From: Candidatus Staskawiczbacteria bacterium
GTDB taxonomy: Bacteria; Patescibacteriota; Minisyncoccia; Minisyncoccales; Staskawiczbacteraceae
NCBI GenBank assembly: GCA_026395175.1
Contig: JAPLZF010000009.1
Span: forward strand, 82,083 to 146,082
Direction of reading: 5' to 3'
Length of the DNA: 64,000 nucleotides
Shown here: in pieces, positions 1,246 to 55,132 of the stretch
How the letters are laid out: each line of letters opens with the position of its first letter
Numbering within the stretch: position 1 is the stretch's first letter
Made by a program: the position numbers and the translations under genes
The notes under the pieces: model-generated
Database searches by the model: none
Told to the model about the DNA's origin: nothing
Seen by the model: the letters and a program-made list of their open reading frames with translations, nothing else

Positions 1246-1967
1246 GCTCTTACTTTACAATCTTTAAAATATGGAGAAATTTCTTTAACAATTTCTTCTA
1301 AAAATTCTTTTTTGAACGGCTGGATTTTTTCAAAATCAGGGTCAATTGTTTTTTCTGCCCTGAACTTCTGCAAATAATATTTTACGTTTTTTTCTCCAAT
1401 CCATTTTGCAATTTTAACAAAATCTTCTTTTGTATGAATTGTATTCACCACGGTTGTGCGAAATTCAAAATCCAAGCTTCCTCGCTTTAAAAATTCAACA
1501 CTCTCTTTAATATCTTCCATTTTCACACCCTCGCCCATAATTTTTTCGTATACTCCAGCAGGTCCCTTTATATCCATGGCAACATAATCAATCAAACTTG
1601 CCCTAACCAAATCTTTTAACATTGCAGGATTTGATCCGTTTGTGTCTAATTTCACAGAATATCTCTCACCCTGAGCAAGGTCGAAGGGCAAATTTTTAAT
1701 TTTTTCTATAAAGCTCGGCAAATCTTTGTTTATTGTCGGCTCTCCTCCGCAAATTACAACACCGTCCAGCAATCCTTTTCTTTCCCTTAAAAAATCAAAA
1801 AATTGTTTTTCTGAAATTCTTGGTTGCTCTGCAATTTTTAACGGCAAAACCAATTCTGAAGAATAACACCAAGGACATCTAAAATTACATCCTGCCAAAA
1901 AAACAATGCAGGCAATTTTCCCCGGGTAATCAATTAAAGTTGTTTTTTGAAGTCCAGCTATAATCAT
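1242..1967 (-). CDS. nrdG: Anaerobic ribonucleoside-triphosphate reductase activating protein (radical SAM)
   Basis: CNFRCPWC radical-SAM cysteine motif, and it sits directly downstream of nrdD. Confidence 0.85.
   Translation of the reverse strand: MIIAGLQKTTLIDYPGKIACIVFLAGCNFRCPWCYSSELVLPLKIAEQPRISEKQFFDFLRERKGLLDGVVICGGEPTINKDLPSFIEKIKNLPFDLAQGERYSVKLDTNGSNPAMLKDLVRASLIDYVAMDIKGPAGVYEKIMGEGVKMEDIKESVEFLKRGSLDFEFRTTVVNTIHTKEDFVKIAKWIGEKNVKYYLQKFRAEKTIDPDFEKIQPFKKEFLEEIVKEISPYFKDCKVRA
1669..1688 (+). repeat. Dispersed repeat family C copy (ccctgagc-nnn-gtcgaaggg), in frame in nrdG and encoding PFDLAQG
   Basis: A near-identical 19-20 nt motif recurs at seven other loci. Confidence 0.6.
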
Positions 1968-5206: not shown

Positions 5207-6427
5207 TTATGGGATGAAGTTTCTGATCCATTTTCTAAATCCAGAGCCCCATCCCTTGGTAAGTCCTAATATACCATCTTTTGAGCCAGAATCAACCCCT
5301 TCCAAAGCCAATCCCGCAACAGTTGCCAACGCCGGGTCTTCTTGAAGCCCTATAATGCCTTTCGGCCTGCCAATTTCGCAGGAAAGATTCAATGTTTCTC
5401 TCACAAGCTCTTTTATTTTTGGAATTTTAGCTCCACCGCCTGTCAAAACAACTCCTCCCGGCAACAACTCCTGCCTGTTAATTTTTTTCAACTCTTTTTG
5501 CACCAAGTCCAAAATTTCAGAAACTCTCGGCTCAATAATGTCCACCAAATTTTTCTTTGTGAAACTCAAAGAATCTGATTTGTCAAAAACTTCTATTCTC
5601 TTTTTCGACTGGTCCAATCCTTTTTCTGTTTTTGAAGACATGCAAGTTCCATGTTGTTTTTTAATTGATTCTGCAATTGCCACGTCTGTTTTCAGACCAA
5701 TAGCAATGTCGTTTGTAATGTTTGCCGAGCCAATTGGAAAAACAGCCAAGTGCATCAGCTCGCCTTCTTCAAAAACTGCCAAAGATGTTGTTGCAGCCCC
5801 AATATCAATTAAAGCCACTCCCAGTTCTTTTTGTTGCGGAGTCAAAACAGCGTTGGCTGCTGCTAAAGGCGAAGGAATTACATCATTTATCTGCAATTTT
5901 GCAGCCAAAACAGCTTGGGTAAGCTTTATAAAATAAGGAGAAAAAACGCACAACAGCAAAACTTTTGCTTCCAATCTTACGCCGGTAAGGTCTTCGGGCT
6001 GTTTTATCCCTTTCTGGTCGTCAATAATAAATTCTCTGGGAATAACGTCTAAAACTTCATCATTTCTGGAAATATTTATTGCTCTTGTCGCCTGCAAAAC
6101 CCTTTCAACATCTTCTTTTGAAATTCTTTGGTCTGCCCTAGAAACAGAAATTATTCCGTCGGAAGGAGTAACATACAAATGGTTTCCGCCAATATTCACA
6201 AAAACAGAATTGATTTTCCTGTTGCAGTCTTTTTCAATTCCCGAAATTATCATCTGCACATTTTTTGCCGTTTCTTCCACAGAAACCACAGCACCCTTTC
6301 TCAGCCCAAACGAAGGAATTTCCGCATACGACAAAACTTCCCAGTCGTTTCCATTTCTTTGAGCCACCAAAGCTTTTATGCTGTGCGTCCCAATATCTAA
6401 ACCTGTGACAATGTCGGCTTTCGCCAT
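5207..6427 (-). CDS. ftsA: Cell division protein FtsA
   Basis: Actin-like ATPase N-terminus LDIGTHSIKALVA; ftsA-ftsZ gene order. Confidence 0.85.
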   Translation of the reverse strand: MAKADIVTGLDIGTHSIKALVAQRNGNDWEVLSYAEIPSFGLRKGAVVSVEETAKNVQMIISGIEKDCNRKINSVFVNIGGNHLYVTPSDGIISVSRADQRISKEDVERVLQATRAINISRNDEVLDVIPREFIIDDQKGIKQPEDLTGVRLEAKVLLLCVFSPYFIKLTQAVLAAKLQINDVIPSPLAAANAVLTPQQKELGVALIDIGAATTSLAVFEEGELMHLAVFPIGSANITNDIAIGLKTDVAIAESIKKQHGTCMSSKTEKGLDQSKKRIEVFDKSDSLSFTKKNLVDIIEPRVSEILDLVQKELKKINRQELLPGGVVLTGGGAKIPKIKELVRETLNLSCEIGRPKGIIGLQEDPALATVAGLALEGVDSGSKDGILGLTKGWGSGFRKWIRNFIP

Positions 6428-6514
6428 AATGCTATTTTTTAATTTCTAATTTTGAATTTCGATTAAATTTTAAAATTCTAATTTCGAAATTCTGGTTTTA
6501 TTCGAAATTCGAAA
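6428..6514. repeat. Degenerate array of the GAAATTC/TTCGAAA heptamer repeat (family A) in the ftsA-ybeY intergenic region
   Basis: aatttctaattttgaatttcga ... ttcgaaattcgaaatt; it shares a roughly 25 nt core with the copy inside polX at 53899-53937. Confidence 0.6.
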
Positions 6515-6901
6515 TTAAAAATTCAAAATTTCTAAATACTTCTCTTCTTTCTCCTGCATTTTTATTTCTTCTGCTCTGCTTTTCTCGTGGTCATATCCGC
6601 ACAAGTGCAAAATGCCATGAACAAAAACTTCCATTATTTTTTCTTTCTTTTCTTTTACAACTTCCGGACAAATCACAATCTCGCCTAAATAATCTTTTTC
6701 GTTAAACAAAAAAGATAAAACGTCGGTAGGTTTATTTTTCCCGCGATATTTTTTATTAAGCTTTGCAATCTCGGCTTTTTCCACAAAAGCCAAAGATAGC
6801 GTTTCCGTTTCTCTATTTTCGCCTAATAAAACTTTTTTTGCAACCTGTGAAAAACTTTTCTTATCCACAGAAAACTTGGTGAGGTTATTTATCTCTATCA
6901 T
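6515..6901 (-). CDS. ybeY: rRNA maturation endoribonuclease YbeY
   Basis: HGILHLCGYDH metal-binding motif. Confidence 0.85.
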   Translation of the reverse strand: MIEINNLTKFSVDKKSFSQVAKKVLLGENRETETLSLAFVEKAEIAKLNKKYRGKNKPTDVLSFLFNEKDYLGEIVICPEVVKEKKEKIMEVFVHGILHLCGYDHEKSRAEEIKMQEKEEKYLEILNF

Positions 6902-8131: not shown

Positions 8132-8863
8132 CTAATAAGTTTGAGGACTTAAATTTTCAACTATATTTTCAGATTTTTCTTTATAATCTTGGGACTGCAA
8201 ATATTCTTCTAATGTTGTATCTTGCCATTTTAGGTAGTATGCTTCTTTATTCCAACTCTTGAACAGTTCTTTGAGATATTTTTTCATTTCAATAAAAGTG
8301 TTTTCAACTAATGACCCACTACCATCTGATACAGATAACATTGTTGCGAATGCCTGCGATAGCATCATAATATTAATTGATATTTGGTCAGATTTATTCA
8401 TAACTTTTCTAATTGTTTGATCGCAATGATAAAAACTTATTAATAAAGCAAATTTATTCTTTACAACCACGATTCGATTTGAATGGATCAATGAGTAAAA
8501 AATATCATTTGAAATATAGCAAAACCCATGGACATCCTGATGGGTTTCTCTCCAATCTTTTATTTTTTTTAAATTACTATTTATACAGAGTAAATTATTG
8601 AATAATTCAGTTATAAGAAGTTTTTCCAATTCATTGTTTATTTGTTTTTCCCTTTGGACGCTAACACAATAAATCCCAAAAGCAACAATAATTGCTATAA
8701 CGTTAACGAATACAGAAATAGTATCTGCTACAAAACTCCATTCAATTTGTGGCATAACAAATAATTTATTTTCTAAAAAATAATCTGATAATATAAACAA
8801 TCCTCCAAAACCCATAAAAATAAAATGGTACCAGTTTAATTTTTCGAGCAAGCCATAATCCAT
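8132..8863 (-). CDS. Hypothetical membrane protein (two N-terminal TM helices), last gene of the defence-island operon
   Basis: ORF plus hydrophobic segments; no recognisable motif. Confidence 0.5.
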   Translation of the reverse strand: MDYGLLEKLNWYHFIFMGFGGLFILSDYFLENKLFVMPQIEWSFVADTISVFVNVIAIIVAFGIYCVSVQREKQINNELEKLLITELFNNLLCINSNLKKIKDWRETHQDVHGFCYISNDIFYSLIHSNRIVVVKNKFALLISFYHCDQTIRKVMNKSDQISINIMMLSQAFATMLSVSDGSGSLVENTFIEMKKYLKELFKSWNKEAYYLKWQDTTLEEYLQSQDYKEKSENIVENLSPQTY

Positions 8864-8894
8864 AATAGAGGTAAATCCACTATTTTTTTATTTC

Positions 8895-9125
8895 TCAATC
8901 AATTTTTGTCAACATTTTAAATTTATTCTCTAAATAAAAATTCTTTGTTTTTAAATAAATCATCTGATAAAACGGTGCCATTTTAATATTTTCGGGGTTT
9001 ACGCAATCAACCATCACGGCTTGCGCTACTTTTAGTAATTCAAATTGAGTGCTTTTTTTATCTAAAATTTTATTTTTTTCGAAGCTAATAAATTTTAACT
9101 CTTTTTCAAAATTAAATTTTTTCAT
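8895..9125 (-). CDS. Hypothetical small protein (76 aa)
   Basis: ORF tightly packed between the REase candidate and the membrane protein. Confidence 0.4.
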   Translation of the reverse strand: MKKFNFEKELKFISFEKNKILDKKSTQFELLKVAQAVMVDCVNPENIKMAPFYQMIYLKTKNFYLENKFKMLTKID

Positions 9126-10191: not shown

Positions 10192-11266
10192 GATAAATAA
10201 TTTCTAATTTGTCGTTTTGGTTAGCAAAAAAAGTTTTTTGTGCATCACCAAAACCCAATTTTGTTTTTATGGTTGAAACGAGTGACTTTTTTATTTCAAA
10301 ACCAATACTATTTCTTCCTAATTCGCGAGCTTTTTTCATCGTCGTACCGCTACCAGCGAAAGGATCTAACACTGTTTCGTTTTTGTAAGAAAAAAGTTTA
10401 ATCGCACGATAAGGTAATTCTTCGGGAAAAGCCGCAATATCTTTTTCCAATGATGAACCAGGCATTACATTGTTCATTTCCCAAAGAGTCATATACCATC
10501 TATTTTTTTGAATCTCTTTCGTGTCCACTTTTGATTTTTCTCGGACATCTTTAGATATTGAACGATAATCAAATCTACCTTTTTGAAAAATTACTATACT
10601 TTCCAATAAATTGTCAGGATAAAAATACATAGGATAAGGATTCTGTAAAATAACTCCACTCCGACGACTAATTCTTAAATAACCATCGGGTTTCTTCCAG
10701 ACGATTTTATCTCTATATCTAAAACCTGCTTGTTGAAAAATTTTAACCGCGTCAGCGGCGATAGGATATTTCTCGCCATCAATCAACATATCATCAATAT
10801 TCAAAACGGCGATTCTCCCATCTTGTAAGACTCTATATGTTTCTTCGGCAAAACTTTTCAGCACTCCTAGATATTGTTCATAACTCTTAAATAAGCCCTT
10901 ATAATCAAAGGGAGCATTAAAATAAGGCGGCGAGGTTATCATTAGGTGAACACTACCATCTGGTATTTCTGCCATACTCATACAGTTGCCTACTATTAAT
11001 TTGTGGTTTGTTGCGGTAACATCGGGTTGTGTATGTTTTTTGGTTTCAACTAGTTCTTCCAAAACCGCATCTTTCACTCCTTGATTTTTAGATAGTTTGC
11101 TTTTAATTATTTCTTTCTGGATTTCATATAAAGCTTTTTTTGATTTTTTCCTTGGCCATTTTTTGGCTATAATTCCGTGTTTTGTTTTGCTAAGACTAAC
11201 AACCCCACGAAGTTTTTCTTTTGCCAATCTTAAAGCTTTTTTATTTTTAACTTTTACTTTTGCCAT
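10160..11266 (-). CDS. DNA methyltransferase, beta-class N6-adenine/N4-cytosine (motif IV SPPY before motif I DPFAGSGTT)
   Basis: The SPPY and FxGxG motifs occur in the order typical of PF01555-type MTases. Confidence 0.8.
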   Translation of the reverse strand: MAKVKVKNKKALRLAKEKLRGVVSLSKTKHGIIAKKWPRKKSKKALYEIQKEIIKSKLSKNQGVKDAVLEELVETKKHTQPDVTATNHKLIVGNCMSMAEIPDGSVHLMITSPPYFNAPFDYKGLFKSYEQYLGVLKSFAEETYRVLQDGRIAVLNIDDMLIDGEKYPIAADAVKIFQQAGFRYRDKIVWKKPDGYLRISRRSGVILQNPYPMYFYPDNLLESIVIFQKGRFDYRSISKDVREKSKVDTKEIQKNRWYMTLWEMNNVMPGSSLEKDIAAFPEELPYRAIKLFSYKNETVLDPFAGSGTTMKKARELGRNSIGFEIKKSLVSTIKTKLGFGDAQKTFFANQNDKLEIIYREADKYGYIS

Positions 11267-11269
11267 ATT

Positions 11270-11941
11270 TTATATTAATTTATTTTCCGAAAAACTAAAT
11301 GGTTTTTTACCCTTAGCTATTATAACATGATCTAGAACATCTACCCCCATAATTTTGCCGGCTCCAATAATTCTTTTTGTAATTTCTAAATCGTCTTCTG
11401 ACGGCTCGTTATCCCCCGACGGATGGTTGTGGGCTAAAATTACAGAGCAGGCATTTTGTTTTAGCGCTTCCTGAAAAATTTCTCGCGGATGTATTAAGCT
11501 TGCATTTAACGTGCCAATAAACATTGGTTTTTTATGTAAAAGTTCGTTTCTTGCATTAAGAAAAAGCGCCATCAAATGCTCTCTTGTTTTGTCTCGCATA
11601 TAAACAACTTGAGCCAAAACATCTTCAACTGAATTAATTTTTGGCAGACTTTCATCCCTAACATCCAAAGCTCTTTTTACCAATTCTTGGCTTGCCAAAA
11701 TTATACAGGCTTTAGCCGAGTTTATTCCTTTTATTTTTGTTAAATCTTCGTATTTTAATTGTAAAAAATTTTTAATAGGATATTTTGCCAAAATCTGTTC
11801 TGCAACTTCAATTACATTTTTACCTTCCACGCCCGTGCCAAGCAAAATTGCCAAAAGCTCTTTATCTTTCAAATTTTCTTCGCCTTTCGCAATCAACTTC
11901 TCTCTTGGTCTTTCAATTTTCGGCAAATCTTTTATCTTCAT
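11270..11941 (-). CDS. radC: RadC-like JAB/MPN domain protein
   Basis: HNHPSG JAMM motif plus an N-terminal HhH region. Confidence 0.8.
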   Translation of the reverse strand: MKIKDLPKIERPREKLIAKGEENLKDKELLAILLGTGVEGKNVIEVAEQILAKYPIKNFLQLKYEDLTKIKGINSAKACIILASQELVKRALDVRDESLPKINSVEDVLAQVVYMRDKTREHLMALFLNARNELLHKKPMFIGTLNASLIHPREIFQEALKQNACSVILAHNHPSGDNEPSEDDLEITKRIIGAGKIMGVDVLDHVIIAKGKKPFSFSENKLI

Positions 11942-11970
11942 ATTATAGCGACTTTCAGCTTTTACTTTTC

Positions 11971-12261
11971 TTACTTTCTATTAAAGTTTTTACCAACAAT
12001 TTTTTGCAGAATTTCTAAGGTGGCCTGCACAGAAGGATTTTCTGTATTTTCCAAGGTTAATCTATCCCCATAAGTGTTTAACAGAGGAGTTAAAAATTCA
12101 TCTCCCCAAGAAGGAGAAAAAGTTAACACGCCGTAAAAATCAATTTCAATACTTTCGGTTTCTTTCACGTCTCTTAAGAGTGATTGCAATGCAGAAAAAG
12201 CTTCCCTACCCGTTTGTCGGGAGATAAGTGTTGTGCCAAATTTTTTTAATTCTATTTTCAT
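11971..12261 (-). CDS. STAS-like (DUF4325-type) small protein, putative partner of the upstream GHKL kinase
   Basis: ISRQTGREAF ... IDFYGVLTFSPSWGDEF matches the DUF4325/STAS-like pattern; 4-nt gap to the kinase gene. Confidence 0.55.
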   Translation of the reverse strand: MKIELKKFGTTLISRQTGREAFSALQSLLRDVKETESIEIDFYGVLTFSPSWGDEFLTPLLNTYGDRLTLENTENPSVQATLEILQKIVGKNFNRK

Positions 12262-12265
12262 AATT

Positions 12266-12994
12266 TTAATAAGTTATTAAGGCAAGACATCCACGGACAG
12301 TTTCTGATGCATCTTCACTAACAATATCCGCGCTATTGCCTTTTAATAATAATTTTGCGTCGCCCGATTGGAATATCAAACTAATTGGATTCTTTGAAAT
12401 AACGCTTTTAACATATTTTAATCCATTACCTCTTGATTCGGGTTTCCTACCGGAGATTATCTCGGTAAATGCAGTTTGCAATGCATGAGCATGGTCTTTT
12501 AATTCTGGTTTTACTTTTCTTAATGTTTCTAAAATTCCCACTCCTCTGTCCGCCAATACAATCTGTTTTTTATTCAAATCATACGCAAAGAAAATTCCGG
12601 GAATATCTGGCCACTGACCAAGATTATGGTCATATGAATTATTTCCTATCTCTCCGGCAATAGATGTCAATAAAGAGAACAATGGTTTTGCATCTTTATT
12701 TTCAATCATCAGCGTTTCCATCTTTGTTATGCGAGCTTGAAAAACTCCGCTGTTTTGGCAATAAAATTGCTCGGGTATTTCTTTTTCTAAAACTGCCCAG
12801 TCTTTAGCAAGCTGGAATAAATCATTTAAGAAAACATCAATATCTTCTTTGCGATAATAACGATGACCGCCCGGTTTATCTCTAACTGAAAGCAAACGAC
12901 CGCTTTCATCCCAGCGACGCAATGTCATAATTGTAACTCCCAGCAATTCGGCTGCTTCACCTATTGTTATTAAATTTTTGTCTTTTTCTTCCAT
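12266..12994 (-). CDS. MerR-type HTH fused to a GHKL (HATPase_c, RsbW/anti-sigma-like) ATPase/kinase domain
   Basis: HTH ITIGEAAELLGVTIMTLRRWDESG; N-box EIGNNSYDH; G1 DRGVGI; G2 GRKPESRGNGLKYV. Start chosen at MEEKDK, downstream of a TATAAT; the ORF-track start at 13063 is probably too long. Confidence 0.65.
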   Translation of the reverse strand: MEEKDKNLITIGEAAELLGVTIMTLRRWDESGRLLSVRDKPGGHRYYRKEDIDVFLNDLFQLAKDWAVLEKEIPEQFYCQNSGVFQARITKMETLMIENKDAKPLFSLLTSIAGEIGNNSYDHNLGQWPDIPGIFFAYDLNKKQIVLADRGVGILETLRKVKPELKDHAHALQTAFTEIISGRKPESRGNGLKYVKSVISKNPISLIFQSGDAKLLLKGNSADIVSEDASETVRGCLALITY

Positions 12995-13093
12995 AGTTTT
13001 AATCTTTATTTGTATTATATCATAGTTTTTAAACCTATACAAGGTGCCAATAAACCTATACATTTACCCTAATTTTCAGCCAAACAAAAACCG

Positions 13094-13113
13094 TCCTGAG
13101 CGAAGTCGAAGGG
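13094..13113 (+). repeat. Repeat family C copy (intergenic), part of a hairpin plus T-run downstream of the 13139-13828 gene
   Basis: tcctgagcgaagtcgaaggg followed by cggttttt. Confidence 0.5.
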
Positions 13114-17061: not shown

Positions 17062-17625
17062 ATGATAATTATTATTGGCCTGGGAAATCCGGGCAAACAA
17101 TATAAAAATACCCGCCACAATGTTGGATTTATGGCAGTTGACAGCTTTGCAGAGAAAAATAATTTCCCGGAGTTTAAGTTAAACAAAAAATTTAATTCTT
17201 TAGTTTCAGAAGGAATTATTGAAGAAGAAAAAATATTGCTCGCCAAACCTCAAACGTTTATGAATAACAGCGGTTCTGCAGTAAAATCCTTAATTCGAAA
17301 TTCGAAATTCGAAATTAGAAATTCTATCGTCGTGGTACACGACGATATAGATCTTCCTGTTGGAAAAATCAAAATCGTGCAAGAACGCGGTTCTGCCGGC
17401 CACAAAGGCGTTGAGTCAATAATTAAAAGCATTGGCAACAACGGCTTAGTAAGATTTCGCATAGGAATTGCAGGCAATAAAAAAACCGACGCCATGAAAG
17501 TTGTCTTAAAAAACTTTTCAGCAGAAGAGAAAAAAACATTGGATGAAACGATAGAAAAAATAACAGAAGCTTTAGACATGTTTATAAAAGAGGGTTTAGA
17601 AAAAACAATGAACAAATTTAATTAA
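17062..17625 (+). CDS. pth: Peptidyl-tRNA hydrolase
   Basis: MIIIIGLGNPGKQY...HNVGF motifs. It carries an in-frame heptamer-repeat insert encoding RNSKFEIRNS. Confidence 0.85.
   Translation: MIIIIGLGNPGKQYKNTRHNVGFMAVDSFAEKNNFPEFKLNKKFNSLVSEGIIEEEKILLAKPQTFMNNSGSAVKSLIRNSKFEIRNSIVVVHDDIDLPVGKIKIVQERGSAGHKGVESIIKSIGNNGLVRFRIGIAGNKKTDAMKVVLKNFSAEEKKTLDETIEKITEALDMFIKEGLEKTMNKFN
17291..17325 (+). repeat. (TTCGAAA)n heptamer tandem repeat (family A), in frame inside pth
   Basis: ttcgaaattcgaaattcgaaattagaaattc. Confidence 0.7.
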
Positions 17626-25025: not shown

Positions 25026-25109
25026 GCCGAGGTGGTGAAATTGGCAAACACGCCGGACTCAAAATCCGGTGCCCTTAAAAGCTTGAGGGTTCAAGTCCCT
25101 CCCTCGGCA
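25026..25109 (+). tRNA. tRNA-Leu (anticodon CAA), long variable arm, CCA not encoded
   Basis: Acceptor stem GCCGAGG/CCTCGGC, anticodon loop CTCAAAA, T arm GAGGGTTCAAGTCCCTC. Confidence 0.8.
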
Positions 25110-34345: not shown

Positions 34346-35182
34346 TTAAATATTAAATAATTTTTTAGCGTTTTGGGTGGTGGCATCTGCAACTTCGTCA
34401 AAACTCATGCCTCGTAAGTCTGCAATTTTCTGGATAACATGTTTTACAAAAATTGGCTCGTTTCTTTTTTCTCCAGCTTCAGGTGGAGCAAGGTAAGGAC
34501 AATCTGTTTCAGTTAAAAGTCGGTCCAAAGGAGCTTTTTTAATAACCTCATCAATATCAAATTTAAATATAATTCCATTGATACCAAGATAAAATCCCAA
34601 ATCCATATATTTTTGCGCCTGCTCCCAGCTTCCAGTAAAACAATGAATCACTCCGCGCAATTCGTTAACACTAGCAAGCCCTTTAAATCTACCCAAAATA
34701 TCAAGCACATCTTCGTGCGCCATTCTGCAATGAATAATAATAGGTAAATCTCGTTTAACTGCAAGATCAATCTGCTCAATAAAAACCTCTCTTTGCTTTT
34801 GCTTAAATTTTTCCTGCTTTGTAGCTCCTTTTGGTTTGTAATAATAATCCAAACCAATTTCTCCAATTGCCACAACTTTCGGCGATTTCAAAAGCTCTTT
34901 ATATTTTTGCCTATCAAATTCCTCGCCAAGCGGTTCAAATGCGCCCTCTTCCTCGTCCATTTTTAACTTCATCAAATCTGTTTTTATATGAATCGGATGC
35001 ATTCCAATTGCAGCATAAATTCCCTCATTCTTTTCAGCCAACTCAATTGCCAATTTTGAAGTTTCATATTTTGTTCCAACATCAATACAAACCACCCCCG
35101 CTTCTTTCGTGCGTTTTACAACCTCCTCCCTATCTGCATCATAGGCTTTAAAGCTTAAATGTGAGTGCGTATCAGTTATCAT
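34346..35182 (-). CDS. tatD: TatD-family metal-dependent hydrolase/DNase
   Basis: ITDTHSHL N-terminus; TIM-barrel metal ligands. Confidence 0.8.
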   Translation of the reverse strand: MITDTHSHLSFKAYDADREEVVKRTKEAGVVCIDVGTKYETSKLAIELAEKNEGIYAAIGMHPIHIKTDLMKLKMDEEEGAFEPLGEEFDRQKYKELLKSPKVVAIGEIGLDYYYKPKGATKQEKFKQKQREVFIEQIDLAVKRDLPIIIHCRMAHEDVLDILGRFKGLASVNELRGVIHCFTGSWEQAQKYMDLGFYLGINGIIFKFDIDEVIKKAPLDRLLTETDCPYLAPPEAGEKRNEPIFVKHVIQKIADLRGMSFDEVADATTQNAKKLFNI

Positions 35183-36672
35183 TTTTTGTTTTCTAGTCTC
35201 GGAAATAAAATTTCTGACCTGCCCTGAGCGGAGTCGAAGGGTTTTTCAACTACTTTTTTTATTTTTTCTGAAGTTTGTGGCAAAAATGGTTCCAGCAAAA
35301 TTCCAATTTCTTTTATAGCAAAAAATAAGTCATTAATAACTTCCATTTTTTTTGCCTGCCCAGAGCTGGTCGAAGGGGTTTCCCAAAGTTTTTCTTCATT
35401 TATATATTTGTCGCAAAAACTTATTATTTCCCAAACAGAAATTAAAGCTTCGTTAAATTTAAAACTTTCAATGGCTAATTTATAATTTTTTTGCGTTTTT
35501 TCAATTTGTTTTTTTAATTCTAAATTTGAAAATTTATTCGAAATTCGAAATTCAAAATTCGAAATTTTGTCTGATATTCCCAATGTTCTTGCTACCAGAT
35601 TGCCAATACCGCCGGCTAAATCGGCGTTGTATCTTTGCTCAAATTTTTCGTATGTAAAATCACCATCCTCTGCAGAGACGATTTCTCTTAACAAATAATA
35701 TCTAACTGCATCAACTCCATATTTGTTTACCAGCTCAAAAGGGTCAACTACATTTCCCAAAGATTTTGACATTTTTTGCCCGCCAACATTTATAAATCCA
35801 TGAACAAAAATCTTTTTAGGGAGAGCAAGCTTAGCCGACAAAAGCATTGCTGGCCAAAATATGGTATGAAACTTCATTATATCTTTGCCTAAACAATGAA
35901 CGTCTGCTGGCCAATATTTTTTGAATTGCTCTGTTTCATTGTCATATCCAATAGCCGAAATATAATTTGGCAAAGCGTCGCACCAAACATACATTACCTG
36001 TTCTGGGTCTCCCGGAACTTCAAACCCCCAATATTTATCTTTTGTTCTGGAAAAGCTTACATCTTCCATACCTTGCTTCAACATTGATAAAGTTTCATTC
36101 TTTCTAGACTCGGGAATAATTTCTATTTCGCCACTCCTAATTTTTTCTTCCACTTCTTTAGTATATTTTGAAAGCCTAAAAAAATAATTTTCTTCTTCAA
36201 CAAATTCCAGCTCTTTCAAATGTATAGGACACTTGCCATCAACTATTTCTTTTTCTGTTTTAAATGCCTCGCATCCTGGGCAATAATAACCTTTATATTT
36301 TTTCTTATAAATATCGCCTGCTTCATCTAATTTTTTCCAAAGCTTTTCTACTGCTGGCTTGTGCTTTGTTTCATCTGTGGTTCTTATAAAGTCATTATTT
36401 GATATATTTAAAATTTTTGTCAGCTCTCTAAATTTGCCAGAAATTCCATCGGCAAAATCTTTTGGGTCACGGCCCGCTTCTCTCGCCACCCTTAAGGTTT
36501 TAATGCCGTGTTCATCTGTGCCGGTCAGGAAAAAAACATCTTCACCTAAACACTTATGATATCTTGCCAAAACATCTGCCTGAATTGCCTCCAACGCAAA
36601 GCCAATGTGCGGAGGCGCATTTGTGTAGGGAATGCTGGTGGTGATATAGAATTTTTTGTTTTTATTTGTCAT
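35179..36672 (-). CDS. metG: Methionyl-tRNA synthetase
   Basis: PYTNAPPHIGH and KMSKS motifs. Start moved to MTNKNKK. Carries in-frame repeat inserts from families A and C. Confidence 0.85.
   Translation of the reverse strand: MTNKNKKFYITTSIPYTNAPPHIGFALEAIQADVLARYHKCLGEDVFFLTGTDEHGIKTLRVAREAGRDPKDFADGISGKFRELTKILNISNNDFIRTTDETKHKPAVEKLWKKLDEAGDIYKKKYKGYYCPGCEAFKTEKEIVDGKCPIHLKELEFVEEENYFFRLSKYTKEVEEKIRSGEIEIIPESRKNETLSMLKQGMEDVSFSRTKDKYWGFEVPGDPEQVMYVWCDALPNYISAIGYDNETEQFKKYWPADVHCLGKDIMKFHTIFWPAMLLSAKLALPKKIFVHGFINVGGQKMSKSLGNVVDPFELVNKYGVDAVRYYLLREIVSAEDGDFTYEKFEQRYNADLAGGIGNLVARTLGISDKISNFEFRISNKFSNLELKKQIEKTQKNYKLAIESFKFNEALISVWEIISFCDKYINEEKLWETPSTSSGQAKKMEVINDLFFAIKEIGILLEPFLPQTSEKIKKVVEKPFDSAQGRSEILFPRLENKK
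35222..35241 (+). repeat. Repeat family C copy in the metG C-terminus (KPFDSAQGRS)
   Basis: ccctgagcggagtcgaaggg. Confidence 0.6.
35359..35377 (+). repeat. Repeat family C copy in metG (PSTSSGQ)
   Basis: cccagagctggtcgaaggg. Confidence 0.6.
35523..35568. repeat. Heptamer repeat family A array, in frame in metG (ISNFEFRISNKFSN)
   Basis: aatttgaaaatttattcgaaattcgaaattcaaaattcgaaatttt. Confidence 0.65.
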
Positions 36673-44879: not shown

Positions 44880-47672
44880 TTATTTTTTAATAATATTTAT
44901 TTTTGTTTTGTCGGCTTCAACGTTTTCATCTTTTACAAAAATTTCCACTGCTCTGAATTCTTTCAGCAAAAATTCCTTATTCTTTTCTATAATCAATTTC
45001 TCTTTTTCAGAGACAAACATTTCAACAGAAATTTTATCTTGCGGAACCAATTTTTGTTCTTTTCTTTGGTTTTGTACTGCCCTTATAATTTCCCGCAATG
45101 TTCCCTCTTCTTTTAATTCTTCTGTAAGATTTATGTCCAGCTCAACTTCGCCTGCAATTTTGTCATCAAAAATAATTTCTTTTACATTCACTTCATCTTT
45201 TACCAATCCCAACAAATCATTTTCATTTTTTATTTTAGCTTTTATATTTTTTATTTTCAGTAAAGCCAACGGCTGTTTTACTTTAACTCCTTTTGCAATT
45301 CTTTCGGCCAAAGCTAAGTTAACAACCGTTCTCACTTCATTCATTTTTTCTTCCAGGTCATTATTAATTTTCTTTTTGTCCACATCTGGCCAGATGCATA
45401 AATGCACTGACTCTGGTGTATCATTTGTTTTTACCTGCTGATAAATTTCCTCTGCAAAAAATGGCATTGCCGGAGACATCAATAAAGATACATAATTTAA
45501 AACATATCGCAGGGTAGCCAATGCGTCTTTTTTGTCTTGCCCGTCTTCCTTAAAGCGTTCTCGGCTTCTCCTTAAATACCAGACAGAAAAGTCATCAATA
45601 AAGTCAGTCAATGGTCGTGTAGCCAAATCTAATCTGTAACTTTCATAACCCTCTGTAATATTTTTTATCAACCCGTTAAGTCGAGATATTATCCATTGGT
45701 CAAGCAAATTTTTGCTTTTATTGCTTGCCGGAGTGCCGTCTGCATAAAGCTGATAAAAAGATAAAACGTTGTAAAGCCTGCTGATATTTTTGTTTGCAAT
45801 TTCGGCAACACCTTTTTCAGAAAACGCCAGATTGTCTGCCTGCACCACAGGCGAGCTCAACATATAAAACCTCATTGCATCTGCTCCATACTTTTCCATT
45901 ACTTCTTTTGGATCTGGATAGTTTTTTAACTTTTTAGACATTTTTTTGCCGTCTTCAGCCAAAACAATTCCGGTTACAATGCAATTTTTAAATGCTTCCT
46001 TGCCAAATAAAGCTCCAACCAAAACATGCTGGTAATAAAACCAAGCCCTTGTTTGGTCTTGAGCTTCTCCAATAAAATCTGCCGGAATATGCTTTTTGGT
46101 GGCAAATGGCACCGACCCAGAATCAAACCAAGTGTCCAAAACATCGGGCACCCTTTTCATTTTGTCGCCACAACTGCAATCAAAAACCACTTCATCAACA
46201 ACATCTTTATGCAAATCAACAACTTTTATTCCGCTGGCTTTCTCAAGTTCTTCTGCCGACGCAAAAACAATTTCTTTTTTGCATTTTTGGCATCTCCACA
46301 CAGGAATTGTATTTGCCCAAAAACGCTGGCGTGAAATAGACCAGTCTCTGGCTCCTTCTAACCACTGGCCAAATCTTCCTTCTTTTATATGCGTTGGCAC
46401 CCAGTGTATTTTTTTTGCGGTCTTCAACAATATTGATTTTATTTTCTCAACTGCAACAAACCACGAACTTGTAGCATAATTCAACAAAGCAGTATCACAC
46501 CTCCAGCAATGCGGGTAGCTGTGCTCATATTTTTCATATTTAAATAACAATCCTTTTTCTTCCAAATATTTTACTATTGTCAAATCTGCTTCGCGAATTT
46601 CTTCGGGCTTATCTTTTGCCCGAGGCTTTAAATCAAGCCCGGCAAACTCGCCAGTCTCCTCTTTAAATGTGCCGTCCATTTTTACGTGCTGGACAAATGG
46701 CAAGCTTTCTTTTTTGCCAAGTATCATATCGTCTGTTCCAAATGCTGGTGCTATATGAACAATTCCTGTTCCATCTTGTGTATTCACAAAATCAGCAGAA
46801 TAAACCTTTCCACTTTTTATATAATAATCAAACAATGGCTCATATTCCAGCCCAACCAAATCTTTCCCTAAAATATTTTTTACAATTTTATATTCCTTCT
46901 CATTAAAAATATCTTTTACTCTTTCTTCTGCTAAAATATAATTATTATTTTCAAATTCCACAACTACATAATTTATTTTCTCGCCAACTGCCAATGCAAC
47001 GTTGCCGGGCAAAGTCCAAGGAGTTGTAGTCCAAGCCAAAAAATAACCATCTTTTGTTTTAAACTTTAATGTTGCCGACAAATCTTTTATGTCTTTATAG
47101 CCTTCTGCAACTTCACCCTGGCTTAATGTTGTTTCGCACCGTGGACAAATATGAAGCGACCGGTAATCTTCATAAATAAGCCCCTTCTTATATAATTCTT
47201 TAAATGCCCACCATTCTGCCTGCATATACTCAAAATCCATAGTGCGATATGGGTTTTTCATATCAGCCCATCTGCCGAATCGTGGTATTATAGTCTCCCA
47301 CTCGTGAATAAAAGTAAAAATTTGTTCACGGCACAAATCATTAAATTTTTTGACTCCCATGGCTACAATATCCTTTTTGGATTTTGTGCCAAGGCTTTTT
47401 TCAACAATGTTTTCAATTGGCAAACCATGGCAATCCCAGCCCCATTGCCTTTCAACATAAAAACCCTGCATCGTTTTATACCGGGGAATTGCGTCTTTAA
47501 CCACGCTTTGAAGCAAGTGGCCATAATGCGGAGTTCCTGTGGCAAATGGCGGACCATCATAAAACACAAAAGCTTTTTTGTTTTTTGTCTGTTCTAAAGA
47601 TTTCTCAAAAATCTTATTCTCCTGCCAAAATTTTAATATTTTATTTTCCTCCTCAGAATAATTATACGGCAT
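44880..47672 (-). CDS. ileS: Isoleucyl-tRNA synthetase
   Basis: HIGH (PHYGH) and KMSKK motifs; CP1 editing domain. Confidence 0.9.
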   Translation of the reverse strand: MPYNYSEEENKILKFWQENKIFEKSLEQTKNKKAFVFYDGPPFATGTPHYGHLLQSVVKDAIPRYKTMQGFYVERQWGWDCHGLPIENIVEKSLGTKSKKDIVAMGVKKFNDLCREQIFTFIHEWETIIPRFGRWADMKNPYRTMDFEYMQAEWWAFKELYKKGLIYEDYRSLHICPRCETTLSQGEVAEGYKDIKDLSATLKFKTKDGYFLAWTTTPWTLPGNVALAVGEKINYVVVEFENNNYILAEERVKDIFNEKEYKIVKNILGKDLVGLEYEPLFDYYIKSGKVYSADFVNTQDGTGIVHIAPAFGTDDMILGKKESLPFVQHVKMDGTFKEETGEFAGLDLKPRAKDKPEEIREADLTIVKYLEEKGLLFKYEKYEHSYPHCWRCDTALLNYATSSWFVAVEKIKSILLKTAKKIHWVPTHIKEGRFGQWLEGARDWSISRQRFWANTIPVWRCQKCKKEIVFASAEELEKASGIKVVDLHKDVVDEVVFDCSCGDKMKRVPDVLDTWFDSGSVPFATKKHIPADFIGEAQDQTRAWFYYQHVLVGALFGKEAFKNCIVTGIVLAEDGKKMSKKLKNYPDPKEVMEKYGADAMRFYMLSSPVVQADNLAFSEKGVAEIANKNISRLYNVLSFYQLYADGTPASNKSKNLLDQWIISRLNGLIKNITEGYESYRLDLATRPLTDFIDDFSVWYLRRSRERFKEDGQDKKDALATLRYVLNYVSLLMSPAMPFFAEEIYQQVKTNDTPESVHLCIWPDVDKKKINNDLEEKMNEVRTVVNLALAERIAKGVKVKQPLALLKIKNIKAKIKNENDLLGLVKDEVNVKEIIFDDKIAGEVELDINLTEELKEEGTLREIIRAVQNQRKEQKLVPQDKISVEMFVSEKEKLIIEKNKEFLLKEFRAVEIFVKDENVEADKTKINIIKK

Positions 47673-51034: not shown

Positions 51035-51481
51035 ATGAAGATATTCAGTGAAAACAAAAAGGCGGGGTTTAACTATGAAATCCTAGAGAAGTTTGAAGCC
51101 GGGATGGTTTTGTTTGGCCAGGAAGTTAAATCAATAAAAACCGGGCACATCAATTTGTCCGGGTCTTATGTTGTTTTTAACAGGTCAGAGCCCTATTTAA
51201 CCGGCGTAAAAGTGCCTCCATACCAGCCAAACAACATTGGAGCCGACTATAATGAAGAAAGGCAAAGAAAACTTCTTTTAAACAAAAAAGAGATAGATTA
51301 TTTGGCGGGCAAGACCAAAACCAAGGGTTTTAGCTTAATACCCTTGAAAATTTATGAGAACAATGGTAGAATAAAACTCGAATTCGGGTTAGCCCGCGGA
51401 AAGAAGAAATTCGACAAAAAGGAGAAAATTAAAAAACGGGATGTCGACCGAGAGGTTAATCGCGAATTATCACGGGGATGA
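51035..51481 (+). CDS. smpB: SsrA-binding protein
   Basis: GFNYEILEKFEAGMVL..EVKS SmpB signature. Confidence 0.85.
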   Translation: MKIFSENKKAGFNYEILEKFEAGMVLFGQEVKSIKTGHINLSGSYVVFNRSEPYLTGVKVPPYQPNNIGADYNEERQRKLLLNKKEIDYLAGKTKTKGFSLIPLKIYENNGRIKLEFGLARGKKKFDKKEKIKKRDVDREVNRELSRG

Positions 51482-51827
51482 TTGTTTCGATGACTAGTTC
51501 TTTAAAACAAGGCAAGTTAAGCTTTCTCAGGGCTTATAAATCTTCTGGGAAAAAACATAATTGCTACTAATTTATTTAATAGACAACCAGCATTAGCTTT
51601 CGCTTAATGCGGCATCTCAACCATTGACTCCTAATAAATGGACCTGAGGTGTTATATTATTAGGATAGGAATTCTGAGTCCTTGGCAGATTTCCAAAATA
51701 AAAAGGATAAGATGTTAAAAATTTTGCTATTTCTTTATTTGACATCCTAAAAAACAGAACTAGCTAAACTTGTAGAATTGCTTTAGAAAACTTTTCAGAC
51801 GCGATTTCAACATCGCCATCTCCACCA
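51474..51827 (+). ncRNA. ssrA: tmRNA (SsrA); its 5' GGGGATG pairs with 3' CATCTCC-A-CCA; predicted tag ATNLFNRQPALAFA
   Basis: tRNA-like 3' end GACGCGATTTCAACATCGCCATCTCCACCA and 5' GGGGATGATTGTTTCGATGAC resemble E. coli tmRNA; the candidate tag reading frame ends in TAA; sits downstream of smpB. Confidence 0.75.
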
Positions 51828-52940: not shown

Positions 52941-53408
52941 TTATTTTATAGATAAAACAAACTCATTTGCTTTTTCTAATAATTTTTTTGAATTTTTAAA
53001 TGTTGTTTTTTTAATTGCCTCTTTAATGGGCAACCACACAAAATCAATATGTTCGTCGGAAATTTTAACATCTTTTGTTTTTGTTTCTGCCAAGAAAAAA
53101 ACAACCAGTTTAAAAACCCATGGAGCTTTTTTTCTGGCTTCACCCGCCAGACCATAATTTCTCCTAAAGAAATATTTTTCCAATTCCTTAAATCCCAAAA
53201 TTATTTTTAAGTCTTTAATTCCTGTTTCCTCAAAAATCTCGCGCTTTGCGGTTTCTGTTTCGGTTTCTCCTTGTTCAACATGGCCTTTGGCAAAACCCCA
53301 TTGCCCCCTTTTCCCCTTTTCAGCCGGTGCATAATGCAAAAGTAAATAGTGCGGCACACCATTTTCCATTCTATATATTATAGCTCCTGCAGATTTTTCT
53401 TTCGGCAT
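52941..53408 (-). CDS. NUDIX hydrolase
   Basis: Nudix box GHVEQGETETETAKREIFEETG. Confidence 0.8.
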   Translation of the reverse strand: MPKEKSAGAIIYRMENGVPHYLLLHYAPAEKGKRGQWGFAKGHVEQGETETETAKREIFEETGIKDLKIILGFKELEKYFFRRNYGLAGEARKKAPWVFKLVVFFLAETKTKDVKISDEHIDFVWLPIKEAIKKTTFKNSKKLLEKANEFVLSIK

Positions 53409-55132
53409 TACTTAAAATACTTTAATAATTTTTCTACTGAATTCGTGTTTATAATATCTTCTTTCTCGGACCAGCCTCTTCGTGCTTGCGCAATTCCATA
53501 TTCCATAAAATTTAATTGCTCTTTTTGGTGAGCGTCTGTGTTTATTATCATTTTTATTCCGGCCTCTTTTGCTCTTCTAATGTAAAAACCATTCAAATCA
53601 AGCCTTTCCGGGGCAGAGTCAATTTCCAAAATTGTTCCTGTTTTTTTGGCAACTTCCAAAATTTTATCAAAGTCCATTTGGTACTCATCTCTTTTCCCAA
53701 TCAGTCTTCCTGTTGGATGCCCAAATATATCAACATTTTTATTTTGCATTGCTTTTACTATTCTTTGGGTCATTTCTTTCTTTTCCATTTTCATATTTGA
53801 ATGCACGCTGGCAATTGCATAATCCAGTTTTTCTAAAACTTCATCTTTAATATCAAGACTGCCATCTGCCATTATATTAACTTCACATCCATGCAATATG
53901 CGAAATTTCGAATTTCTAATTTTGAATTTCGAATTTAATTGTTCTATTTTTTTATTCTGGGCTAAAAGTTGTTTTTCGTTTAAGCCATGCGTTATTCCTA
54001 AAGATTTCGTATGGTCTGAAATGCCAACATATTCATATCCCATATTTATTGCCGCTTTAACCATTTCTTCAATTGAATTCTCTCCATCGGAAGCTGTTGT
54101 GTGGCAGTGCAAGTCACCTTTAATATCTTTATATCCTATTATTTTTGGCAATTCATTTTTTAAACCAGCCTCAATTTCTCCTTCATTTTCGCGAAGCTCG
54201 GGCTCAATATACGGAAGCCCAATTGCCTTATAAACGCCTTCTTCTGTCTCGCCTGCAATCTGCTTTTTCCCTTTAAATATTCCATATTCAGAAAGCTTTA
54301 AACCTTTTGAAATAGCAATTTTCCTTGTAATAATGTTATGGTCTTTGTTGCCGGTAAAATATTGCAAAGCAGACCCATAGCTTTCTTTTTTTACAACTCT
54401 CAAATCCATATCAAATCCTTCTCTTATCCTAACCGAAGCTTTTGTTCCGCCCTTGCCCCAAACTTTTTCTACTCCGTCCAACTTCACAAAAAAATCCATA
54501 ACTTTGGCAGGATTTTTAGAAACAACTAGAATGTCCACGTCCCCAATTGTTTCTTTTCTTCTTCTTACAGATCCCGCCAAGCTAATCTGGTCAACTTCTT
54601 CCAAGCTTTTTAATTTTTCCAAAACATTTCTGGCAGTAGGCAAAATTTGCCCAATTGGAAACCTGCCTTTATCTCTTTTTAAAAATTCCAAACCCTGCAA
54701 AATATTTTTTTCTGTTTTTTCTCCAAAACCAAATAGGGGAGCCACTTTGTGGGCATTAGCAACTTTTTCCAAATCCTTTAAATTTTTAACTCCCAATTTT
54801 TGATATAATATTTTTGCCTTTTTCACTCCCATCCCTTCAACCCTAACCAGCTCATCCAATTTCAACGGTAATTTTTTCTTAAAATCTTCATAATGTTTTA
54901 TTTTTCCAGTTTTTAAATATTCTTCTATGTGGTCAGCAATTGCTTTGCCAACTCCGGGAATTTCCAGCAAAGCTTTAACTCCTCCTTTTTTATAAATGTC
55001 GCCCACGTCCTCGCTCAGGCCTTCTAAAGACAAAGCTGCCCTTTGGTACGCATAGGGCTTAAAAGCCACGCCGTCGGCTTCCAAAAATCTTGCCATATCA
55101 TTGAAAACTTTAGCCAATTCCTGATTTCTCAT
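53408..55132 (-). CDS. polX: DNA polymerase X family protein with a C-terminal PHP domain
   Basis: N-terminal HhH/pol-beta-like domain, nucleotidyltransferase GDVD region, PHP histidines. Carries an in-frame heptamer-repeat insert. Confidence 0.8.
   Translation of the reverse strand: MRNQELAKVFNDMARFLEADGVAFKPYAYQRAALSLEGLSEDVGDIYKKGGVKALLEIPGVGKAIADHIEEYLKTGKIKHYEDFKKKLPLKLDELVRVEGMGVKKAKILYQKLGVKNLKDLEKVANAHKVAPLFGFGEKTEKNILQGLEFLKRDKGRFPIGQILPTARNVLEKLKSLEEVDQISLAGSVRRRKETIGDVDILVVSKNPAKVMDFFVKLDGVEKVWGKGGTKASVRIREGFDMDLRVVKKESYGSALQYFTGNKDHNIITRKIAISKGLKLSEYGIFKGKKQIAGETEEGVYKAIGLPYIEPELRENEGEIEAGLKNELPKIIGYKDIKGDLHCHTTASDGENSIEEMVKAAINMGYEYVGISDHTKSLGITHGLNEKQLLAQNKKIEQLNSKFKIRNSKFRILHGCEVNIMADGSLDIKDEVLEKLDYAIASVHSNMKMEKKEMTQRIVKAMQNKNVDIFGHPTGRLIGKRDEYQMDFDKILEVAKKTGTILEIDSAPERLDLNGFYIRRAKEAGIKMIINTDAHQKEQLNFMEYGIAQARRGWSEKEDIINTNSVEKLLKYFK
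53899..53937. repeat. Heptamer repeat family A, in frame in polX (NSKFKIRNSKFRI)
   Basis: gaaatttcgaatttctaattttgaatttcgaattt, nearly identical to the core at 6440-6465. Confidence 0.7.

Follow-up and report, generated by a model that had tools for sequence, protein, structure and literature searches.

Short arrays of seven-nucleotide units have gone unexplained since the STRR of 1990 and a survey of 2007, and have mostly been regarded as oddities of intergenic DNA, each peculiar to one lineage. The STRR, heptanucleotide repeats of heterocystous cyanobacteria reportedly described by Mazel in 1990, are said to form the same class of dispersed arrays. The small dispersed repeats (SDR) of Nostoc, reportedly described by Elhai in 2008, are said to be 21–27 nt long, to be thought mobile without a known enzyme, and to lie beside tandem heptamer repeats; they are reportedly not heptamer arrays themselves and are not known outside cyanobacteria. 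Rickettsia palindromic elements, reportedly described by Ogata in 2000, are said to be Rickettsia-specific palindromes of 100–150 bp that add 30–50 residues to proteins. Here we describe arrays of the unit AATTCGA (complement TCGAATT) at four loci of a 64-kb stretch, hereafter the window, of one metagenome-assembled genome of Candidatus Staskawiczbacteria, a member of the Candidate Phyla Radiation (CPR) that is AT-rich with ~36% G+C. Three of the loci lie inside the open reading frames (ORFs) of pth, metG and polX, and the fourth lies between ybeY and ftsA. With a probability of about 0.55, we read all four as belonging to the heptanucleotide simple-sequence-repeat (SSR) class of the STRR/GGGAATC/TAACTGA type, made by register misalignment, copied in short patches and filtered by selection. 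AATTCGA resembles the Rickettsia elements in looking selfish and in being tolerated in frame in housekeeping genes at protein surface positions. Unlike them, it forms tandem heptamers of 35–53 nt, adds a net 1–5 residues, and has ortholog loops that hold other units.

PMC4679880 and PMC4692102, both citing Mrazek 2007, name heptamers as the commonest type of long SSR in bacteria and propose a connection with slippage of the polymerase. The TAACTGA repeats of Beggiatoaceae, cyanobacteria and Bacteroidetes (MacGregor 2015, PMC4679880) resemble AATTCGA in their short dispersed heptamer arrays (2–6 units for TAACTGA), in a patchy spread over phyla without known vector or mechanism, and in their frequent position right 5′ of start codons or over the stop codon of the upstream gene. 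A few TAACTGA repeats lie in ORFs, and binding of the S1 or Csp type has been proposed for them (PMC4679880). TAACTGA has stops in all forward frames, so that its ORF copies stand at protein ends, whereas AATTCGA is stop-free and occurs mid-ORF in essential enzymes; one indirect repeat has been reported for TAACTGA, against an inverted partner in ~30% of the AATTCGA arrays listed in our scan. The GGGAATC/GGGGAYT repeats of Xanthomonas and Nostoc (Rehm 2015, PMC4692102) also form dispersed heptamer arrays, typically of ~4 units and with some inverted pairs, and this class comprises tens to hundreds of arrays that vary in sequence and length between close relatives. It is G-rich with G-quadruplex potential, essentially intergenic and lineage-restricted (PMC4692102). 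AATTCGA differs from it, as from the STRR, in being AT-rich, in containing the palindrome TTCGAA, in being translated in essential genes and in occurring in about a dozen phyla. REP and REPIN sequences with RAYT (Bertels and Rainey 2011, PMC3116915) share with AATTCGA short, often inverted, hairpin-capable pairs and many copies per genome. REPINs are extragenic, species-specific and tied to a RAYT gene, whereas the window copies of AATTCGA lie mostly in ORFs, the unit is common to phyla, and neither the window nor the other loci among L001–L126 contain a homolog of the Y1 transposase that stands beside pth in L126. Neither the AATTCGA repeat as a DNA string nor its peptide was found in any paper of the searchable literature. 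What is new relative to the known heptamer class is a stop-free unit, translated mid-protein in essential genes and found in about a dozen phyla.

Scanning the window for (AATTCGA)3 with up to three mismatches gave 11 overlapping matches, all inside the four loci, against 0.01 in dinucleotide-preserving shuffles. The same loci were the sole matches of a 28-nt periodic scan of the window, which returned 0 in 20 shuffles. Tandem Repeats Finder (TRF) placed period-7 arrays of 4.4–4.7 copies (84–92% matches) at 6428–6530, 17292–17324, 35536–35566 and 53904–53936. The arrays are tandem or degenerate and 4–7 units long. A perfect (AATTCGA)3 lies at 17292–17312 in pth, and positions 6441–6462 and 53915–53936 are identical over all 22 nt, down to two variant units and their order. 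An initial annotation had placed heptamer arrays at these four loci, and they are indeed there, at or slightly past the coordinates it gave; for metG its location (35523–35568) was right, and the array reaches further, to ~35516–35568. Its names for the genes concerned (pth, metG, polX, ybeY and ftsA) are upheld by Pfam, and the Pth and MetG proteins match proteins of a Candidatus Staskawiczbacteria metagenome-assembled genome at 100% identity. The arrays and genes are as follows.

6432–6535, no strand assigned: spacer copy, an inverted pair that fills the ybeY–ftsA spacer, with degenerate units between its arms
6436–6467 and 6497–6531: left arm of the spacer copy, with TTTCNAA-type units, and its right arm, with AATTCGA-type units
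17291–17325, plus strand: pth copy, reading AATTCGA three times and then AATTAGA and AATTCTA on the coding strand; residues 77–87, IRNSKFEIRNS
~35516–35568, minus strand: metG copy, reading AATTCTA AATTTGA ... ATTCGAA (twice) ATTCAAA ATTCGAA on the plus strand; opposite orientation in the coding strand
53899–53937, minus strand: polX copy, reading GAAATTTCGAATTTCTAATTTTGAATTTCGAATTT on the plus strand; AATTCGA-type units on the coding strand
17062–17625, plus strand: pth, array host (Pfam PF01195, Pept_tRNA_hydro, E = 7.6e-61)
35179–36672, minus strand: metG, array host (Pfam tRNA-synt_1g); the start is taken as the ATG at 36672, which gives the 497-aa database protein
53408–55132, minus strand: polX, array host (Pfam PolX with PHP)
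6515–6901, minus strand: ybeY (Pfam YbeY), with its 3′ end provided by the spacer array
5207–6427, minus strand: ftsA (Pfam FtsA), with the spacer array as its 5′ leader

An AT-rich genome of ~36% G+C drawn from metagenome assembly might be suspected of yielding such arrays by chance, by base composition or by misassembly. This is hardly credible given 0.01 matches expected and none in shuffles, frames kept in three essential genes, the same array sites in independent assemblies, and arrays in long-read contigs of >1 Mb and in the complete genome CP012155.

The arrays in pth, metG and polX are in frame, as had been annotated, with all three reading frames open through them. The reason offered, that three heptamers make 21 nt and so keep the frame, does not account for this. 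The array lengths are 35 nt in pth, ~53 nt in metG and 39 nt in polX, none of them a multiple of 21. The array-coded peptide of metG is ISNFEFRISNKFSN, or KISNFEFRISNKFSNLE for the 35516–35568 copy, and that of polX, which falls within the PHP domain, is NSKFKIRNSKFRI. These stretches amount to 11–18 amino acids (aa), against net gains of +1 aa in Pth, +5 in MetG and +4 in PolX. For the most part, then, the ORF arrays take the place of loop sequence and are not simple insertions. In Pth each array-coded residue has its counterpart in the helix end and loop of solved structures, apart from one extra residue (4qt4), and the length of the FMN...HDD segment, most often 29 aa among 82 orthologs, is 30 aa in the window. 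The AlphaFold model of Pth (mean pLDDT 88.5) shows residues 77–87 as the last turn of helix 67–79 followed by loop 80–87, and this block has the second-lowest confidence of the model (pLDDT 74). The array of the methionyl-tRNA synthetase (MetRS) falls in a variable loop after the GIGNLVAR helix, where the anticodon-binding domain begins; compared with the solved structures 4dlp and 2csx, the loop shows no gap against Brucella and +3 against Aquifex. The corresponding MetG segment is bimodal among 120 orthologs, with 36 aa in 59 and 41 aa in 19, and the window belongs to the 41-aa group. The PolX loop is 4 aa longer than in Thermus PolX (3au2) and than the mode of 100 representatives, and the family-conserved residues LN.K ... 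F.(I/V)L fall within the array-coded stretch. Net length changes of other in-frame arrays are likewise small: judged against solved structures, 0 in TsaD, −2 in Fmt and at most +9 in Der, in a linker, and 0 in Mfd. By the Pth model, the solved Pth and MetRS structures and the ortholog alignments, the ORF copies sit in variable loops.

The spacer copy had been described as intergenic. It does lie between ybeY and ftsA, but it also codes the 3′ end of ybeY and is an imperfect inverted pair, with arms at 6436–6467 and 6497–6528 that are 32 nt each and 88% complementary. The array provides the closing five codons of ybeY along with its stop (LEILNF and stop), and it ends 8–13 nt ahead of the ftsA start codon. 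In the syntenic relatives L125 and L126 the ybeY–ftsA gap is 3–10 nt, and the window is ~95 nt longer. On this comparison the spacer copy is a true insertion of ~95 nt, the sole clear insertion among the four copies. To that extent the original suggestion of insertion after the manner of Rickettsia palindromic elements stands, but it does not extend to the ORF copies, which add just +1, +5 and +4 aa. Assignment to that type of element has to be given up, since the ORF copies are single arrays of 35–53 nt, an inverted pair occurs in the spacer alone (104 nt), the palindromic form of 100–150 bp is lacking, and no transposase, terminal repeat or target duplication was seen. The heptamer build of the arrays also makes resemblance to the consensus families of the Rickettsia elements unlikely. 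Direct reading of the spacer flanks (..gtattta / tagcatt ATG) against L125 and L126 gave no target duplication, and terminal inverted repeats with a target-site duplication, as in miniature inverted-repeat transposable elements (MITEs) or REPINs, were likewise absent from the spacer insertion in that comparison.

In folding against shuffles the inverted pair alone stands out, with z = −3.25 as RNA and −2.6 as DNA. Hairpin-driven slippage of single arrays was considered and rejected: a perfect five-unit array folds at −8.7 kcal/mol (z = −0.4 against dinucleotide shuffles), and the ORF arrays behave likewise. The folding of the spacer copy, which constitutes the complete ftsA leader, does raise the question of a functional cis-element kept by selection, with the ORF copies as tolerated by-products. 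Candidates would be an A/U-rich ribosome leader or standby site of the S1 or Csp type, a paired hairpin terminator or stabiliser, or a site for a DNA-binding protein. We regard such a function, and any of these forms of it, as distinctly unlikely. Arrays in high-GC genomes often lie 0–30 nt 5′ of starts (LpxB, ABC transporter, TrkA, pilin) or just past stops, the AATTCGA unit is kept across phyla, and TAACTGA repeats sit just upstream of start codons (PMC4679880); yet three of the four window copies, and about a third of those in relatives, are inside ORFs and in both orientations, units turn over fast between relatives, and relatives do with a ybeY–ftsA junction of 3–10 nt. For single arrays the folding is on a par with shuffles, prediction gave neither a promoter-like nor a terminator-like site in the ybeY–ftsA spacer, and a scan of the window with the families of Rfam 15 gave no match at gathering score at the arrays.

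The ORF copies had also been proposed to be lineage-specific inserts. Ortholog alignments contradict this, since relatives share the pth array boundaries and 19 of 120 MetG orthologs have the long form. The pth array has exactly the same boundaries in the window and in L124, L125 and L126, the relatives' Pth being 68–76% identical, and the homogenised unit differs by lineage: AATTCGA in the window, AATTCGA and AATTCAA in L126, AATTCAA in L124, and AATTTCA, of the opposite-orientation type, in L125. The change from IRNSKFEIRNS to IQNSKFKIQNS follows from CGA to CAA, a CpG transition. An added peptide missing from orthologs, as in Rickettsia, was not found, the relatives carrying arrays at the same sites.

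Among 82 Pth orthologs from metagenomes, 14 reach an autocorrelation of 0.75 at lag 7 in this loop, none does so at the other lags from 3 to 12 save one ortholog at lag 9, and control segments of the same pth genes do so in 3 of 410 cases. The loop arrays of distant orthologs are built from unrelated units (AACTACA, AGTTTCA, AATTGAA, GTCAAAT, AATCTNA and CTAAACC). They have the length of the ancestral-type FYKIKPEN loop (29 aa) and keep ancestral Tyr-Lys and Asn codons in phase. Unrelated units of the same length at the same loop argue for in-place conversion to 7-nt periodicity and not for one arriving element, and they suggest that the 7-nt register, not the sequence, is what the underlying process recognises. 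A second heptamer hotspot of Pth lies ~70–120 nt into the gene (codons ~24–40), in the loop past the first long helix, in L154, L160, L161, L162, L198 and L206; its units include AATTGAC, AAAGTTG and AAAATTG, and the window has no array there.

Other genes of relatives show comparable replacement. Mfd carries an in-frame AATTCGA/AATTCAA array (GISKFEIQNSKFTD) at 2344–2382 of L124 and 2329–2367 of L151. The L124 array is exactly as long as the non-repeat loop of the window (GIEKFNTTIEESQS), and the segment is 10–25 aa longer in two other relatives. In topA, relatives that are 91% identical differ by whole units within the array while the flanks are conserved, and at this identity array regions diverge much faster than what flanks them. 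Between L124 and L151, which are 99.8% identical, arrays differ by one substitution and have the same length. A phase-variable contingency SSR was rejected as an explanation, the arrays of these two genomes being equal in length, their hosts essential genes and their positions mid-ORF.

Periodicity of seven is in excess well beyond this unit. Counting arrays of at least four units with at least 80% match at the lag tested, 680 kb of CPR relatives contained 103 with lag 7, roughly ten times the 12 with lag 6 or the 11 with lag 8; lag 9 gave 2 and lags 10–12 gave none. Of the 103, ~35 lie in long ORFs, and the units are mostly of the AATTNNA and AAAATNN kinds, with unrelated ones besides. The excess agrees with the published standing of heptamers among long bacterial SSRs (PMC4679880, PMC4692102). 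A scan of one genome per species found perfect (AATTCGA)3 in at least 120 loci of about a dozen phyla. The matches listed come from Acidobacteriota, Verrucomicrobiota, Planctomycetota, Chloroflexota, Bacteroidota, Nitrospirota, Omnitrophota, delta- and gamma-proteobacteria and several CPR groups, at a locus G+C of 32–71%, and include megabase long-read contigs and the complete genome CP012155. Within the 120 loci listed there are 213 perfect period-7 arrays, against 3–11 for periods 4, 5, 6 and 8 and 0 for periods 9–11; 80 of the 213 are not AATTCGA, and many of these are its one-mismatch neighbours. Among the matches listed, arrays are mostly of 4–5 units, several genomes have many copies, and an inverted partner lies within 400 nt of ~30% of arrays, against a direct partner for 6%. 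Many arrays in other phyla end a few nt 5′ of start codons or just 3′ of stop codons. In-frame AATTCGA copies occur in MetRS, a ValRS-like class I synthetase, LeuRS, TsaD, Fmt, Der, MurF, transketolase, PBP2, ThiC, a molybdopterin oxidoreductase and an alpha-2-macroglobulin; eight of these hosts were confirmed by Pfam.

Some inverted AATTCGA arrays, in Thermoanaerobaculia, Holophagae and a deltaproteobacterium, enclose 80–290 nt (4739–4914 of L049, 1035–1213 of L115, 3159–3295 of L117, and further pairs in L024 and L027). The enclosed spacers share recurring motifs, CCCACCCNCCC beside the array and ctcaagtg near the far arm, a pattern that hints at composite repeats of larger size there. Searching with (NSKFEIR)6 yielded only short ORFs of spurious appearance; among proteins P0241–P0293 are many 'hypothetical proteins' of 33–74 aa that are largely translated heptamer arrays, and these are probably spurious ORFs on intergenic arrays.

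A competing explanation is a small non-autonomous mobile element of the Rickettsia palindromic element, MITE or REPIN kind, consisting of 30–100 nt of heptamers, perhaps the inverted pair, that a trans-acting transposase would move into genes in frame, with the ORF copies as half-elements. We think this unlikely. In its favour, the same unit stands at four window loci, two of which share the identical 22-nt run with its two variant units (6441–6462 and 53915–53936); the gain at ybeY/ftsA is a clean ~95 nt; there are many copies per genome in several phyla; ~30% of the arrays listed from other phyla have an inverted partner 16–290 nt off, far above direct partners, and some of these pairs enclose related internal sequence; and AT-rich arrays in GC-rich genes must originate elsewhere. 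The 22-nt identity is weaker evidence than it appears, however, since the variants AATTAGA and AATTCAA recur widely, and the excess as a whole is tied to period and not to sequence. Against the element stand ORF copies that code 11–18 aa yet add 0 to +5 aa, and ortholog loops that hold unrelated-unit arrays of the same length. Fixed ends and a target duplication are not visible at the ybeY/ftsA insertion, and the Y1_Tnp of L126 has no homolog in the 64-kb window or in the other loci among L001–L126 by tblastn. Only 3 of 2.9 million viral contigs contain (AATTCGA)3; a viral vector was rejected on the same count, which gives no sign of phage spread.

L126 carries a Y1 transposase (PF01797) and an rve integrase at 10738–12905, between pth and mfd and directly downstream of its array-bearing pth. 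At either end of a CPR contig, L155 (8,980 nt), AAATTCT arrays cluster in inverted orientation (23–100 and 8850–8958); a terminal repeat, circularity of the molecule or a break of the assembly at repeats could account for this.

Tolerance of AATTCGA within genes is explained by its coding properties. The unit has a stop codon in none of the six frames, a property of 39 of the 265 heptamers with at most two G/C (15%) and of none of 16 other CPR units tested, including all common ones. Its two strands encode (NSKFEIR)n and (SNFEFRI)n, with mean hydropathies of −1.27 and −0.31, and the more hydrophilic NSKFEIR reading is used in 20 of 23 ORF cases (two-sided p = 5e-4). The stop-free property and the hydrophilic bias account for the tolerance of the unit and not for its origin. 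Selection on a low-complexity loop peptide rich in K, N, I and F, of which the nucleotide periodicity would be a side effect, might be drawn from the same preference for the hydrophilic reading and from the resemblance of array peptides to the helix ends and turns that they replace (LKESRINLEEID against TIRNSKFEIRNL in TsaD; LNSKFK..N..FKVL in PolX). This origin is very improbable, because the repeats are exact in nucleotides, without synonymous scatter even at 60–70% G+C, this DNA is found in non-coding positions as well and in either orientation, and the periodicity is 7 nt and not 3 or 21.

Membership in the heptanucleotide SSR class, our preferred reading, agrees with a 7-nt unit repeated at least three times head to tail, with dispersed arrays of the same unit and with a lineage-wide period-7 excess. 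The mainly intergenic placement that is typical of the class, though not strictly defining, is not seen here, three of the four window arrays lying in ORFs. We propose that a process acting in a 7-nt register would make and homogenise arrays in place, most likely when strands misalign as DNA is replicated or repaired and are then corrected from a template. A/T-rich, weakly constrained DNA could in this way become perfectly repetitive without its length necessarily being altered. Short-patch recombination or template switching, at microhomologies like ATTCG and GAAATT, would carry one unit type from locus to locus, which might produce both a dominant unit per genome and occasional true insertions like the ~95-nt inverted pair at ybeY/ftsA. 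Some copying between loci is assumed because one unit occupies four window loci, because of the identical 22-nt run, and because AT-rich arrays stand in GC-rich genes. Selection would keep frame-preserving, roughly length-neutral copies in tolerant surface loops of essential genes; CpG transitions would erode CGA to CAA, and selection on the protein may in time reshape old arrays until they resemble any other loop. We infer both mechanisms, misalignment and copying, as well as the lack of a dedicated function.

Several points weigh against this account. Misalignment in a 7-nt register is a published conjecture that is here carried over by inference. AT-rich AATTCGA arrays occur in the ThiC, formate-dehydrogenase-like and alpha-2-macroglobulin genes of genomes with 57–60% G+C, and in-place homogenisation alone cannot yield AT-rich arrays in GC-rich genes or one unit at four loci. 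Sharing of units within genomes is significant with the window included; across the other CPR loci it is a weak trend (3 observed against 1.2 expected, p = 0.11). The abutment of arrays on start and stop codons and the ~30% of inverted partners could also be explained by function. Finally, at 99.8% genome identity the aligned arrays give no visible length instability.

A further possibility is a trans-acting polymerase, reverse transcriptase or repair enzyme that overwrites patches of 30–50 nt from a heptamer template, a 'mobile microsatellite'. We consider it quite improbable. Such a process could be phylum-spanning, sequence- or register-specific and often length-neutral in genes. If true, it would represent a novel type of non-autonomous element and supply loop variation to essential bacterial proteins in general.

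A diversity-generating retroelement lies just past the left end of the window (1890–3423 of L208, and L209), with bAvd (PF22296) and a reverse transcriptase (RVT_1). The retroelement is followed by ComEC, and adjoining it at 417–1121 of the window (minus strand) is a 234-aa ORF without Pfam matches that may be its target. No link between this retroelement and the heptamer arrays is shown.

The question of how heptamer arrays arise is now testable, given a stop-free unit in at least about a dozen phyla, near-length-neutral replacement of loops, and independent conversion of the Pth loop. If the process were identified, it would explain both a repeat class and a source of loop evolution in streamlined genomes. 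The array segments also have practical effects in CPR genomes, where they disturb alignments, trees of orthologs and gene calling.

Several other features of the window were recorded. A second dispersed repeat, GC-rich and ~24 nt long with the consensus CCCTTCGAC-NNN-GCTCAGGGCAGG, gave 4 matches against 0 expected. Its copies are the following.

1665–1688, minus strand: GC-rich ~24-nt repeat
13090–13113, minus strand: GC-rich ~24-nt repeat
35218–35241, minus strand: GC-rich ~24-nt repeat
~35345–35375, minus strand: GC-rich ~24-nt repeat
61373–61396, minus strand: GC-rich ~24-nt repeat

It occurs twice in frame in metG, as TPSTSSGQAKK and FDSAQGRSE, and related GTSSSQARAK inserts are found in MetG orthologs in the same loop as the heptamer array.

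An N6/N4 DNA methyltransferase (PF01555) at 61999–62826 and a DUF6996/DUF6997 protein at 62823–63662, both on the minus strand, are probably a restriction-modification pair. A restriction-modification link through the palindrome TTCGAA was tried and rejected: outside the arrays TTCGAA occurs 7 times against 9.1 expected, neither avoided nor enriched. A weak period-7 array of another unit (TTTTTAT, 5.4 copies, 77% matches) lies at 45220–45257 inside the ORF at 44880–47672. The only Rfam matches in the window are a tmRNA gene at 51474–51827 and one tRNA gene at 25026–25109, both on the plus strand.

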